A DNA stretch of 64,000 nucleotides from an uncultured Flavobacteriales bacterium (GCA_913063375.1 CAJXXR010000003.1:70051-134050); one strand, 5' to 3'. Counted from the stretch's first letter, positions 11,176 through 17,293 are shown. Program-made: numbers and translations. The notes: generated from the letters alone by a model not told the origin.

Positions 11176-13263
11176 ATGTCTAGAAGTAATCTAATGCATG
11201 CTACGGCGCATAAAAAGGAATATTATTCGGCTAAGGAATTGGTAGACAATATAGAAATCAACCAATTGGGGAATAAGGTCGAGGTGGAAATAGATGATAG
11301 TTTGGTGGCTTCAAAAGAAGTTGTAGACAGAGCCACTTCAGTAGATGTGGAAACGGAAACCATCACCACCTATCTAAACAAACGTTTGGCAGAAATTGGC
11401 GTAAAACGCGTAATGGCCATTCCTGGTGATTATATTGCCGAATGGGTAGAGAGTTTGGATATTCCAGAAGCCAGTGCAGGTTTAATCCGTGTACATCCCA
11501 ACAACGAAATGTGTGCTACCTATGCGGCCGATGGTTATGGTAGAGCGGCCAATGGAAAAACAGTAGGATGTGTGGCATTTACCTATGGGGTAGGTGCCCT
11601 AAATGCGGTGCAAGCAGTAGCAGGTGCGCATGTAGAACATGTACCATTGGTAGCGATTAACGGGAGCCCATCTCCGGCACAGTTCAACTCACATAGAGAT
11701 CAAGGGGTTTTGTGGCACCATATGTTTAATGGTACAAAAACGGATCTTAAAATTTTCTCGGAAATTACTGAAATGGCCGTGCGAATTGACAATCCTGCCT
11801 ATGCCCCCGATTTGATTGATGCGGCATTGACTGCCTGTATTACCAACAGTCTGCCCGTTTATATAGAAATAGCCAATACTTTGGGGGATTACCCATGTCA
11901 AAGTGTGGCTACTAGGAAAAGGATTAAAAAATCTCCTGTTGCACAGTCTAAATCAGATTTAGACATTGCTGCTGAATATATTTATGATATTCTAAAGACA
12001 TCCAAGAAATTGGTAATGGTAGGAGGGGTTGAAATCGCTCGTAGCAATATACAGGATAAGTTCAAACGCTTATTACAGCTCTTGGAGGCACCTTACCTAA
12101 GTACCTTGTTGGGGAAAGGGTTATTGAGTGAATTTGATAAAGATATTTATTTTTCTGGGGTCTACAATGGTAGAAACTCACAGCCCAATGTACAGGAATT
12201 ATTTAGTATCAAAGATGGTATAGTTCCTACCGTGGTTTATTTGGGTGTATTGGAAACAGATTTCAATTTCTCCGGGGTGACTTCTACAGATTATGATCCA
12301 GATCCAGGGATCACGCTTCCCTTGACTGGGCAAATAGAAGCACGTAATGGAGCTGTTCTGATCAACGATAGAGCTTCCAAAGAGATAGACAGTGATGTGT
12401 ATTGGGGGAATGTAGATTTGGAACCCCTTATTGACACACTGATTAAATTGATGCTGGAACGTGGGGCTTTACCAAACGCACCCTTCCCGGGATTGCAAAC
12501 AGGTACGCCTTGGGACATTCCAATGCCATCCGCCTATGATGCGAAAAAACAGGTGACTTGGGATAGTTTTAAATCCCTGCTACAGCACGAATACATCTCC
12601 ACTTTTGAGCAAGAACAGACACCAGTCGTTTTAGCAGATACCGGATTGACCTTTTATTCTTTGAACAATCTGAAAGTTGGTCAAAACGGATATATCGCCC
12701 AATTGGCTTGGGGTGCTATTGGTTATTCACCAGCATCCAGTTATGGGGTGAAAATGGCCTTGGAAGATACAGGTAACAACAAACAGGTAATTAGTATTTC
12801 TGGAGATGGTGCCATTTCCGAAAGTATCAATTGCTTGGGGACTATCGCTTCATTAGGACAAGACAATGTGATATTCGCCATGGCCAATGGGGTATTTGCC
12901 ATTGAGCAATTTTTGGTGAATGTATGTGCCTTTGAGTATAAACCAGATGCTCCAAAGTTTGTTCCTTTAACACAGGTTCCTCAAACAGCACTTTGGGATT
13001 GGATCAAGCTTGCGGAAGGATTCGGAGGAGTTGGTTATGATGTCAGCACCAACGAAGAATTGAGAGAGGTCTTGAAAAAGATAAAAAATGCACCTCGCCC
13101 GGCAACTCCTACGGGACCTTGTGTAGAAGGATCATCGGATGGATGTTGTGAATTTGAACCACATGAAGAGGAGGTAAGACGATCTACCTTTACACTAGTT
13201 GCTGTTCGTAATGTCTGTAAAGATTTACCTAGCAATACTAAGTGGAAAATGAGGGGTTGTTAG
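11176..13263 (+). CDS. thiamine-diphosphate-dependent 2-keto-acid decarboxylase (indolepyruvate/pyruvate decarboxylase family)
   Basis: It has the catalytic-Glu block NEMCATYAADGYGR and the ThDP/Mg motif GDGA-x24-AN-GVFAIEQ, with D-to-N spacing as in PDC. The C-terminus is PDC-like (FTLVAVRNVCKDLPSNTKW). It also has an N-terminal extension of about 60 aa and a Cys/acidic insert. Confidence 0.8.
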   Translation: MSRSNLMHATAHKKEYYSAKELVDNIEINQLGNKVEVEIDDSLVASKEVVDRATSVDVETETITTYLNKRLAEIGVKRVMAIPGDYIAEWVESLDIPEASAGLIRVHPNNEMCATYAADGYGRAANGKTVGCVAFTYGVGALNAVQAVAGAHVEHVPLVAINGSPSPAQFNSHRDQGVLWHHMFNGTKTDLKIFSEITEMAVRIDNPAYAPDLIDAALTACITNSLPVYIEIANTLGDYPCQSVATRKRIKKSPVAQSKSDLDIAAEYIYDILKTSKKLVMVGGVEIARSNIQDKFKRLLQLLEAPYLSTLLGKGLLSEFDKDIYFSGVYNGRNSQPNVQELFSIKDGIVPTVVYLGVLETDFNFSGVTSTDYDPDPGITLPLTGQIEARNGAVLINDRASKEIDSDVYWGNVDLEPLIDTLIKLMLERGALPNAPFPGLQTGTPWDIPMPSAYDAKKQVTWDSFKSLLQHEYISTFEQEQTPVVLADTGLTFYSLNNLKVGQNGYIAQLAWGAIGYSPASSYGVKMALEDTGNNKQVISISGDGAISESINCLGTIASLGQDNVIFAMANGVFAIEQFLVNVCAFEYKPDAPKFVPLTQVPQTALWDWIKLAEGFGGVGYDVSTNEELREVLKKIKNAPRPATPTGPCVEGSSDGCCEFEPHEEEVRRSTFTLVAVRNVCKDLPSNTKWKMRGC

Positions 13264-13270
13264 TAATTGA
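13108..13270 (+). repeat. direct repeat R1a (last 51 codons, stop and 7 nt of the decarboxylase gene)
   Basis: In my hand alignment it matches 14775..14937 at 157 of 163 positions. Weaker similarity continues through the following terminator hairpins. Confidence 0.9.
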
Positions 13271-13277
13271 CTTTAGA

Positions 13278-13306
13278 GCCGTACAGTTTTTTTGTACGGC
13301 TTTTTT
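13278..13306 (+). terminator. rho-independent terminator of the decarboxylase gene
   Basis: A GCCGTACA / TGTACGGC stem is followed by T6. Confidence 0.7.
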
Positions 13307-13615
13307 AGTGATTGGGATTTTGAATCAATTCCAGAATTATGGTATTGAAAATGAGTTTGTATTATATCGAGAATACACCATAGGTTATATTTAATATGGC
13401 TTTTGACTTAGTAATTTAAAAAGAAAAGAAATAATGATTAGAGATGCCCCATAGTTAGTGGAATGTTTGAAATTGGATCATAAACTTGAATGATCTAATT
13501 AGAGGTGCCTTTGGACATCTTCTGCGAAAAAAAAAATAAAGACTTAGTGGCTTGAAATAGTTACGGAAAAAAGTCTACAACAATTACATGAACGAAATTA
13601 TTAAAGTATAATATT

Positions 13616-16355: not shown

Positions 16356-16492
16356 TACTGCCAACAACGTGTATAATACATAGCTAAGATGGTTAAGAGA
16401 ATGAAAAGTCTTACTTTTAATCAACAATCATAAATCTGATAAATCCGTAGCCATAAAATCGCTACGTTTCATAAACAAGACCGTTGGCAGTA
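16356..16492. other. 137-bp spacer bounded by a perfect 10-bp inverted repeat (TACTGCCAAC ... GTTGGCAGTA)
   Basis: It begins 21 nt after the stop of 15216..16334 and ends 26 nt before the ATG of 16519. It contains an internal GTAGC/GCTAC hairpin. The shape is attC-like, but this is not verified. Confidence 0.5.
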
Positions 16493-16518
16493 ATGAGAAA
16501 ACACTAGAATAACATTTA

Positions 16519-16947
16519 ATGAAAACGACAACATTTCTAACATTTGTAGGTGATCAATGCGGAAGGGCTGAAGAAGCGATAAATTTTTACACTTCTATCC
16601 TTCCGAATTCGGAAATTAAAAGCATAACAAAATACTCAGAAGGAGAGGCTGGAGGAACACCGGAGCTTATCAAATATGGGGTATTTACATTAAATGGTTC
16701 AGAGTTCATGGTTTCCGAAAGTAATTTTAATCACGCTTGGTCATTTACACCAGGGGTATCACTATTCGTTGAATGTAACACTGAAAATGAGATAGAAACT
16801 TTATTCGAAAAACTTTCTTCACAAGGAGGCCAGATTATGGTTCCTCTTGACAACTACGGCGGTTCAGGGGATTATGGCTTTGGTAAAAAATTCGGATGGT
16901 GTGAAGACAAATATGGTATTTCATGGCAACTTAACCTTTCAGAATAA
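16519..16947 (+). CDS. VOC-superfamily protein, PhnB/YjdN-like (3-demethylubiquinone-9 3-methyltransferase-domain type)
   Basis: The 142-aa ORF carries TTFLTF...AEEAINFY...FTPGVSLFVEC...MVPLDNYG...GISWQLN, which is typical of this small family. Confidence 0.7.
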   Translation: MKTTTFLTFVGDQCGRAEEAINFYTSILPNSEIKSITKYSEGEAGGTPELIKYGVFTLNGSEFMVSESNFNHAWSFTPGVSLFVECNTENEIETLFEKLSSQGGQIMVPLDNYGGSGDYGFGKKFGWCEDKYGISWQLNLSE

Positions 16948-17130
16948 TTTCCCCGTTGGCGCCAGTTTTCAACTGGTGTTCCGACATCCTAGGAATCAAT
17001 AACTAAAAACGAATTCATAGATCAAAACCCATTGATTACTTTAAGCCAGCGCTGCTGTCAGCTTATAACTGGAGGCTATAGTCATACCTAGAATGATATA
17101 AAATAGTTTCCAGGGGCAATGGAATAGAGT

Positions 17131-17293
17131 ATATTTTGAAAATAATTTGTTTCACCAGCTGGTCATTCTAGGACGATTTTGTAGCTTTATTTTTGCAAAA
17201 AATAAGCTCCGTTTGAGCAGGTAATATTCTGTAAAATCAATAGGAGTAGGAGGATAGAAGAATTTGATATATAGAACAAATACTCATATATTT
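17131..17293 (+). repeat. direct repeat R2b (non-coding)
   Basis: This is the second copy of R2. It ends about 28 nt before the ATG of 17322. Confidence 0.85.

Follow-up and report, generated by a model that had tools for sequence, protein, structure and literature searches.

Genes and direct repeats at the locus

We studied a stretch of 64,000 nt (in the following, the window) from an uncultured Flavobacteriales bacterium (GCA_913063375.1, CAJXXR010000003.1:70051-134050) with a marine, Flavobacteriaceae-like genome. The focus is on a locus downstream of a thiamine diphosphate (ThDP)-dependent decarboxylase gene, where small accessory genes, among them one for a protein with a HEPN motif, are bracketed by long imperfect direct repeats. 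All coordinates refer to the window and to its plus strand unless stated otherwise, and loci of relatives that were fetched for comparison carry L numbers.

The locus opens with the intact decarboxylase gene (11176-13263; indolepyruvate/phenylpyruvate type; Pfam TPP_enzyme_N/M/C, NCBIfam TIGR03394-like below the cut-off). Its last 52 codons together with a terminator hairpin (-18.5 kcal/mol, z -6.95) form the first repeat copy, R1a (13107-13306). The following segment, cargo 1 (13307-14773), consists of a unique leader of 310 nt and a gene (13616-14734) whose 372-aa product has a hydrophobic helical hairpin at its centre (the transmembrane (TM) protein). It is closed by R1b (14774-14979), i.e., an orphan decarboxylase 3' end with its own terminator (-21.2 kcal/mol, z -6.43). 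Next to it are a promoter-like intergenic region, R2a (15004-15190), the gene for the HEPN-motif protein (372 aa, 15216-16334; GC content 0.22-0.25 vs. about 30-33% nearby), and a gene for a VOC/PhnB-like protein (142 aa, 16519-16947; PF06983). A unique spacer of 170 nt (16948-17119) opens with a hairpin that contains an R'-like GTTGGCG (-15.5 kcal/mol, z -4.3) and has no homology to any fetched locus. The second promoter-like copy, R2b (17120-17294), lies directly upstream of a gene for a lipoprotein of the VOC/PhnB type (lipoVOC; 182 aa, 17322-17870; PF06983), which is 50% identical to the VOC protein. This gene content agrees with an earlier description of the same DNA made without database searches (the sequence-only reading).

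A third repeat pair, R3, is found immediately downstream. R3a (17899-18083, minus strand) combines a bidirectional terminator (hairpin -23.2 kcal/mol) with an orphan 3' fragment of 40 codons (coding copy 17961-18083) from a gene with a C-terminal sorting domain of the type IX secretion system (T9SS). The intact parent gene (Por_Secre_tail, 21984-22892, minus strand) carries the other copy, R3b, as its terminator and 3' end (21905-22096; the whole feature spans 21905-22892). Between both copies lies cargo 3 (18084-21904, mixed strands) with three genes, namely an outer membrane protein beta-barrel gene (18067-18702, minus strand), a gene for a membrane protein of 473 aa (18956-20377, plus strand) and a flavin monooxygenase-like gene (20500-21549, minus strand).

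In a self-comparison of the window (blastn, cut-off 1e-4), R1, R2 and R3 are the sole local direct repeats longer than 60 nt, and they stand in series. Without gaps, R1 pairs 13107-13270 with 14774-14937 (164 nt, 96%, spacing 1667); including the terminator, 13107-13306 aligns with 14774-14979 over 208 columns at 90.9%. R2 has two ungapped blocks, 15029-15123 vs. 17144-17238 (95 nt, 91%, spacing 2115) and 15124-15158 vs. 17238-17272 (35 nt, 97%, spacing 2114), and its gapped alignment (15015-15189 vs. 17131-17294) covers 175 columns at 86.3%. For R3, 17899-18068 aligns with 21905-22091 over 187 columns at 77.5%. Diagnostic sub-strings of R1 and R2 occur exactly twice each in the window (0.00-0.14 expected from shuffles). 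The sequence-only reading had located the R1 and R2 pairs correctly. Its identity range of 90-96% is too high for R2 (86-91% when indels are counted). Likewise, its picture of serial insertions stands, but their number has to be raised from two, given R3. A candidate fourth pair at 31140/32581 (49 nt, 80%) is below the blastn cut-off and was not retained. The respective direct repeat (31140-31188 and 32581-32629) lies upstream of two minus-strand genes and brackets a gene for an AraC-type regulator (31353-32471), a geometry like that of R2.

The three pairs are mutually unrelated in sequence, and each is a gene end or a promoter-like region. Since R1 is the conserved 3' end of the decarboxylase gene, R3 is the 3' end of the T9SS-tail gene, and the cargo genes occur elsewhere without these repeats, R1, R2 and R3 are second copies of the resident sequence next to the insertion points and no ends of an element.

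This is most detailed for R1, whose nature as a coding 3' end had escaped the sequence-only reading. R1 starts where the Pfam TPP_enzyme_C match ends (residue 643). The C-terminal tail of the decarboxylase (…STFTLVAVRNVCxDLPSNTxWK…) is conserved in homologues from Ancylomarina (Bacteroidota), Betaproteobacteria, Actinobacteria, Nitrospira and others; the part beyond the Pfam domains is Cys-rich. Every homologue locus that we examined has a single copy of the tail and no second decarboxylase copy. Given this conservation across phyla with one copy per locus, R1a is the native copy and R1b the orphan fragment. Translation of R1b in place was considered and ruled out: its frame differs from that of the TM gene, has a stop codon upstream (TAG, 14742-14744) and provides no ATG, GTG or TTG.

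Nevertheless, R1a and R1b encode the same 51-aa peptide. Their six codon differences (ACG/ACT, GTA/GTG, AAA/AAG, CCT/CCG, GGT/GGA and the stop codons TAG/TAA) are all at third positions, i.e., five synonymous changes plus one stop/stop change and no non-synonymous one (34 synonymous and 119 non-synonymous sites). By our own arithmetic, five silent changes have a chance of (34/153)^5 ~5e-4 if both copies drifted and of (68/187)^5 ~0.006 if only the orphan did. The non-coding part of R1 is about 75% identical (coding part 96%), and both copies retain strong terminator hairpins. As all differences are silent while R1b has no start codon, the copies appear to be alleles from two lineages. That is, they would have diverged as working gene ends and were joined too recently for the orphan to decay. 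The silent-only divergence thus argues against a fill-in target duplication as well as against duplication followed by drift, and for a recombination between diverged relatives.

R2 occupies nearly the entire intergenic space from the decarboxylase terminator to the next gene. It contains TATTTTTG (within R2a), which fits TAnnTTTG, the -7 promoter consensus of Bacteroidetes. Two other identities of R2 were rejected. It is neither an attC site nor a repeated element, given only two copies in the window, no match to the attC model described below, and its absence from all fetched loci. Its interpretation as the native lipoVOC promoter was dropped, as the resemblance to L036 is weak and unsupported by blastn. 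Orthologues of lipoVOC in L036 and L045 (78-81% DNA identity) share sequence with the window over 17310-17900 only, with no R2 and no synteny.

Searches for mobile-element genes were negative. In agreement with the sequence-only reading, no integrase or transposase was found among the 39 window open reading frames (ORFs) scanned, which include every ORF of at least 225 aa, and none of them has a Phage_integrase match. Blastn of 13100-17300 against plasmid and phage collections yields no match, neither the region nor the window has an Rfam match or a tRNA, and the ends of cargo 1 and cargo 3 show no inverted repeats. Among species-representative genomes and JGI metagenomes, the closest decarboxylase relative is at 69%; for lipoVOC, the closest one is at 79% over the full length, and P0017 reaches 87% over 73%. 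None of these is syntenic, and look-ups of the exact proteins return the source contig only.

Integron-type cassette and cargo proteins

The HEPN-motif gene is delimited by inverted core sites, the kind of site that integron integrases cut. Its left boundary is an R'-type core site, GTTGGCAGTAAT (15191-15202), 13 nt before the start codon; DNA homology to L037-L042 begins here. The right boundary is the inverse, ACTACTGCCAAC (16354-16365), 20 nt past the stop codon, and the 12-mer GTTGGCAGTAAT is found again at 16483-16494, 24 nt before the VOC start. Allowing at most one mismatch, we count 3 occurrences of this 12-mer (0.40 expected; 0/100 shuffles reach 3).

The sequence between both right-hand sites, ACTACTGCCAAC ... 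GTTGGCAGTAAT (16354-16494, 141 nt), shows the features of an attC site directly 3' of a single ORF. Its ends form a perfect inverted repeat of 10 bp (TACTGCCAAC/GTTGGCAGTA) that includes the core sites TGCCAAC (16359-16365) and GTTGGCA (16483-16489). The span from R'' to R' is 131 nt (141 nt with the extended ends), within the range of about 57-141 nt for attC sites. The cores keep AAC/GTT, and 2 of the 4 degenerate positions per core depart from the classical RYYYAAC/GTTRRRY. Folding pairs the site ends (z -2.5 and -3.2). By eye only, GTGTATAA / TCATAAAC could be taken for an L box, and the alignment provides no consensus for an inner helix.

The boundaries are also visible in relatives. Homology searches find HEPN relatives with 78-89% protein identity on short metagenome contigs and with 39-46% in Flavobacteriaceae isolates. 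Two groups of loci, L037-L039 and L040-L042, match the window at 87% DNA identity. The match is confined to 15181/15191 to 16324/16367, and the flanks resemble neither the window nor one another. In the first group (L037 146-4207, also L038 and L039), the same inverted core sites bracket a unit of three genes, i.e., the HEPN homologue plus proteins of 550 aa and 397 aa, the latter two without a Pfam or PADLOC match. These contigs come from three samples, and all of them stop no more than about 150 nt from the core sites, which would fit a unit that sits in several contexts. L040 (413-1670) has a solo HEPN cassette with an attC-like site of 86 nt, about 130 nt upstream of a divergent gene (purM-like, read by eye) and outside any array.

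More distant HEPN homologues in Flavobacterium sp. U410 (L043) and Lutibacter citreus (L044) sit in long arrays of small genes on the same strand (L043 5700-17300, L044 8300-11950), which encode GNAT acetyltransferases, VOC proteins and unknowns. Each spacer of these arrays holds a site with the end consensus ACTACNGCYAAC...GTTRGCNGTAAT, and the ends of the window site fit it. The Lutibacter sites hardly differ among themselves, a trait of sedentary chromosomal integrons. No integrase is present within the 10 kb fetched on either side of both arrays. They look like integron cassette arrays, or clustered attC sites that lack an integron-integrase (CALINs), in Flavobacteriaceae isolates.

For a covariance model, we used 9 sites of L043/L044 but not the window site and specified the terminal stem by hand; it is not the model used by IntegronFinder. 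In this stem, 78% of the cells pair (17-47% in slid controls), and one pair covaries. The model recovers 16354-16494 at full length with 35.8 bits (E 7.6e-4 for 132 kb; 5.7e-5 for 10 kb with filters off) as well as further left-out sites of L043. It reports no other significant attC in the window and, with filters off, no second site over 12500-22500. Purely sequence-based attempts failed: an nhmmer profile of the Lutibacter sites missed the window, and RNAalifold gave no consensus.

Because the homology ends at inverted core sites, the relatives sit in attC arrays and an independent model recovers the site, the HEPN-motif gene reads as an integron-type gene cassette with its attC. The sequence-only reading had seen neither the core sites nor the attC, so its picture of a gene with no recombination site does not hold. 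As no intI was found among the 39 window ORFs scanned, and as there is one attC (a CALIN has at least 2 within 4 kb), the window has neither an integron nor a CALIN but a solo cassette.

The sequence past the right-hand G|TT again reads TTGGCAGTAAT, and this recurrence suggests that the HEPN cassette was received by an R'-type site already present ahead of the VOC gene. The VOC gene itself may be an older, second cassette that has lost its recognisable attC.

In the HEPN-motif protein, R193, N194 and H198 (RNKIIH; Rx4-6H type) do not vary among 41 relatives, the most distant of which are about 20% identical. Seven of these 41 weakly match PF18735 (HEPN_RiboL-PSP; best E 1.7e-4); the window protein itself has no match in Pfam, PADLOC or NCBIfam. 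Its structure model (mean predicted local distance difference test score, pLDDT, 94.8) comprises a long helical hairpin, a helical domain with RNxxxH and a C-terminal beta domain (residues ~280-371). With the whole model as query, Foldseek returns no neighbour in PDB or BFVD (E <=0.001). Integron cassettes are known stores of small defence genes, including HEPN ones (bioRxiv 10.1101/2024.07.02.601686). By analogy, a role of the cassette in defence or competition is plausible, and its gene can reasonably be regarded as a candidate small defence or toxin gene. The sequence-only reading had expected defence or competition genes and proposed a PADLOC scan of the segment; at E up to 1, there is no PADLOC match for the TM, HEPN, VOC, lipoVOC and decarboxylase proteins.

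The TM protein has no match in Pfam, PADLOC or NCBIfam either, its PDB profile search is empty, and its structure model (pLDDT 46) is unusable. In 5.8 billion proteins, its family comprises the protein itself and 7 homologues (Thalassospira, Vibrio crassostreae/splendidus, metagenome contigs). These form tandem pairs or triplets in variable islands, while the window holds a single copy: triplets (376, 380 and 376 aa) are found in V. crassostreae/splendidus (L003 8001-11436; L004-L007) and a pair in Thalassospira alkalitolerans (L002 8001-10310). Further genes of the L003 island encode a toxSAS/Panacea (RelA_SpoT/Panacea) pair, a Macro domain protein, AlpA and the reverse transcriptase of a group II intron. 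The homologues of L005 and L007 have an IS240-family transposase as their neighbour. For the TM gene, a part in defence or competition would thus be guilt by association. A tripartite alpha-pore-forming toxin is a guess whose sole basis is the tandem triplets in Vibrio. The TM and HEPN proteins, both of 372 aa, were considered as paralogues and show no similarity.

Proposed history of the locus

R1b, terminator and R2a are contiguous, as are R2b and lipoVOC. Collapsing the pairs therefore yields a reasonable ancestral order, i.e., decarboxylase, terminator, R2, lipoVOC, bidirectional terminator and, on the opposite strand, the T9SS-tail gene. Up to lipoVOC, this order was already proposed by the sequence-only reading and fits the observed adjacencies. 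Three segments would then have been inserted at three points, each leaving a diverged second copy (~175-210 nt) of the resident sequence. The most likely mechanism would be host homologous recombination with DNA from a diverged relative that shares the flanking gene. Such an event could be a single Campbell-type crossover of a circularised fragment with a homologous patch, or a homology-facilitated illegitimate recombination (HFIR), i.e., one homologous anchor plus one illegitimate joint. Either variant would preserve one intact flanking gene or promoter and leave the copy of the other allele as an orphan, and no dedicated recombinase would be required for the three duplications. Both variants predict donor and recipient alleles, so the R1 pattern fits both. 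The single crossover of a circle with a homologous patch, favoured by the sequence-only reading, is viable and even strengthened, since a silent-only divergence needs two alleles from two lineages. The HEPN cassette would have arrived independently, probably at an R'-like GTTGGCA site and via an integrase encoded elsewhere.

Overall, we give a probability of about 0.5 to the following reading: the accessory genes form a patch that varies between strains and arose by serial, one-ended recombination anchored in homology, joined by one integron cassette outside any array, and the locus is not a new mobile element.

Several points weigh against it. R2a ends exactly at the integron core site. Target duplication is not known from integron insertion, which leaves the link between the R2 duplication and the cassette unexplained. 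The R3 copies differ non-synonymously at 12 of the 17 differing codons, such that R3 may be a paralogue fragment or an older event. Furthermore, the duplications are alike in length (208, 175 and 187 columns), which is unexpected from random illegitimate joints and could hint at a mechanism with a characteristic length. Finally, neither a parent nor a sister was found in the searched collections, which leaves the donor and recipient alleles as well as the variability of the locus hypothetical, and DNA entry, by natural competence or another route, would have to be assumed for this organism.

The similar lengths (175-208 columns) of three serial duplications are what a dedicated mobility of repeat-bracketed cassettes would offer to explain. 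Here, a unit of repeat plus cargo would loop out and re-enter the same resident sequence, or an unknown enzyme would make staggered cuts about 200 nt apart, and the locus would be a true hotspot. The scanned ORFs, with no recombinase gene among them, are in line with this, and repeated loop-out and re-entry between strains would produce the allelic divergence of R1. On the other hand, the silent-only R1 pattern disfavours the enzyme variant with its filled-in target duplication. The basic event is known experimentally (PMC3240628), the repeats are mutually unrelated, ordinary gene ends or a promoter, and the cargo genes are found elsewhere without them. We consider such a dedicated mobility, a stronger version of the idea in the sequence-only reading, unlikely. 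We are as sceptical about its wider form, in which duplications of functional boundaries (~175-210 nt) would be the signature of a recombinase-free route of gene gain in Flavobacteriaceae, with repeat-plus-cargo units that loop out and re-enter by host recombination at a true exchange hotspot, which also captures integron cassettes without an integron.

Integration into gene 3' ends classically yields an intact gene, then cargo, then a displaced orphan 3' end, and R1 and R3 have this geometry. The segments could thus be decayed site-specific elements (remnants like cis-mobilizable elements, CIMEs) that brought a replacement 3' end and later lost their integrase by deletion; with the attC, one true site-specific site is indeed nearby. 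However, no integrase or pseudogene-sized ORF remains in or near the segments, the cargo is just 1.5-3.8 kb, and usual att cores are much shorter and much less diverged than these repeats (175-208 columns at 78-91%). Three repeat sequences would moreover demand three integrases, and R2 is a promoter region and no gene end, which makes this explanation quite improbable. We judge the same of local tandem duplications of the decarboxylase gene, the R2-VOC unit and the T9SS-tail gene, followed by replacement or deletion of most of one copy by incoming genes. VOC and lipoVOC are tandem paralogues (50% identical), and two selected decarboxylase paralogues would likewise differ silently only. Yet R2 (86-91%) must be much younger than a duplication of genes whose proteins are 50% identical, a second decarboxylase copy is absent from every other homologue locus examined, and three independent events would each need a precise replacement that leaves about 200 nt. 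The least probable explanation, and a very improbable one, is an assembly artefact in which different strain haplotypes of a single locus were strung together. A 523-kb JGI metagenome contig contains the identical sequence of the window, and the repeat divergences (78-96%) are within the range of strain or species variation. But a graph chimera joins inside shared sequence and would not place diverged copies in tandem around unique DNA; each interval has unique intact genes with proper terminators; and two contigs are on record for each of the TM, HEPN and lipoVOC proteins.

If the locus is a patch built by host recombination, it provides a natural example of accessory genes that were added beside a working gene without breaking it. 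The silent-only divergence would date the orphan copy to another lineage, a diagnostic to tell recombination scars from target-site duplications. In addition, an integron-type cassette stands alone in a Flavobacteriaceae chromosome, with related arrays in Flavobacterium and Lutibacter that share a distinctive consensus of attC ends.

Some further features of the window are worth recording. The decarboxylase gene is part of a three-gene cluster with amine oxidase and lipoxygenase genes (7096-13263), with a GC content of 0.38-0.46 (surroundings about 0.30). The whole cluster is kept in Ancylomarina sp. DW003 (L008 5749-11995, ~71% DNA identity), and parts of all three genes match loci of Betaproteobacteria (Ideonella, Roseateles, Rugamonas, Janthinobacterium). 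The cluster appears to be a pathway that has spread horizontally. Upstream of it, the space between feoB and the amine oxidase gene (5999-7095, ~1.1 kb) is unusually long for this genome and has no ORF above 63 codons and no Rfam match. A family of intergenic hairpins (…CATCAGAGTCACTCnnnGAGGACTCTGATG…) like repetitive extragenic palindromic (REP) elements is found at 3163-3267 (two tandem copies), 49796-49843 and 57251-57298, where 49800-49841 and 57255-57296 are 100% identical over 42 nt. Terminator hairpins that share the stem AAAAAAGACTTA…TAAGTCTTTTTT are located at 20389-20464, 23090-23165, 29974-30034, 34380-34428, 49980-50055, 57212-57260 and 62473-62521 and are probably a common terminator module of the genome. 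Finally, an inverted repeat of 54 nt (81%; 28011-28064 vs. 30585-30638) lies inside two opposed genes for proteins of about 190 aa (27510-28085 and 30567-31133), which are probably inverted paralogues.

Relation to known systems

Site-specific elements and transposons differ from the locus in that no integrase or transposase was found here and that the repeats (175-208 columns at 78-91%) have no short identical core.

For the HEPN gene, off-integron cassettes are the closest system. Integrons have been reported in Bacteroidota (PMC8618304), and off-array cassettes as well as secondary-site insertion are known (Cury et al. 2016, PMC4889954). As in these, a single promoterless ORF is followed by an imperfect palindrome of 141 nt with inverse AAC...GTT cores, the cassette recurs in other surroundings where the homology stops at the cores, and the relatives occupy same-strand arrays with one site per spacer and typical content (GNAT, VOC, small unknowns). 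A CALIN would require at least two attC sites, whereas the window has one and no intI found in its 64 kb. Compared to classical attC sites, the cores TGCCAAC/GTTGGCA deviate from strict RYYYAAC/GTTRRRY and the terminal pairing is longer (10-12 bp). The R1, R2 and R3 duplications are not explained by integron insertion.

Among HEPN abortive-infection and toxin proteins, the RiboL-PSP HEPN family (PF18735) and the Vibrio integron cassettes 'Esos' and 'Taranis' (bioRxiv 10.1101/2024.07.02.601686) share with the window protein an invariant RNxxxH within a helical domain. As for 'Esos' and 'Taranis', its gene is a single-gene, low-GC, patchily distributed and integron-borne cassette. In contrast to the known toxins, the protein is extended by a long helical hairpin and a beta domain at its C-terminus. 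It is without a match among Pfam, PADLOC and NCBIfam models and has no structural neighbour in PDB or BFVD.

The effector-immunity arrays for type VI secretion (T6SS) in V. cholerae and the Rhs loci, for whose orphaned 3' ends an HFIR-type displacement was proposed (PMC5361080), likewise show serial acquisitions at one spot, orphaned 3' ends downstream of the new material and no integrase, driven by a conserved upstream anchor. Their orphan is a different toxin tip with an immunity gene, while the window orphan repeats the conserved 3' end of the metabolic enzyme itself; the window cargo also has no relation to the gene that flanks it, and the flanks are of three kinds.

Campbell-type integration has in common with the locus an insert flanked by direct repeats of the patch, one intact target copy and no dedicated recombinase. 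In such an integration, the two repeat copies are hybrids of donor and recipient. In E. coli conjugation experiments, a single crossover of circular DNA produced duplications of the homologous patch of 109-950 bp (PMC3240628). Compared to these experiments, the event in the window would be a natural one, inferred from sequence alone, with a diverged relative as donor (~4% in coding sequence, ~15-25% at neutral sites). Given these precedents, the undescribed mobility mechanism suspected in the sequence-only reading is not needed: single crossover (PMC3240628) and HFIR (PMC5361080) are both known already, and the locus calls for no new mechanism.

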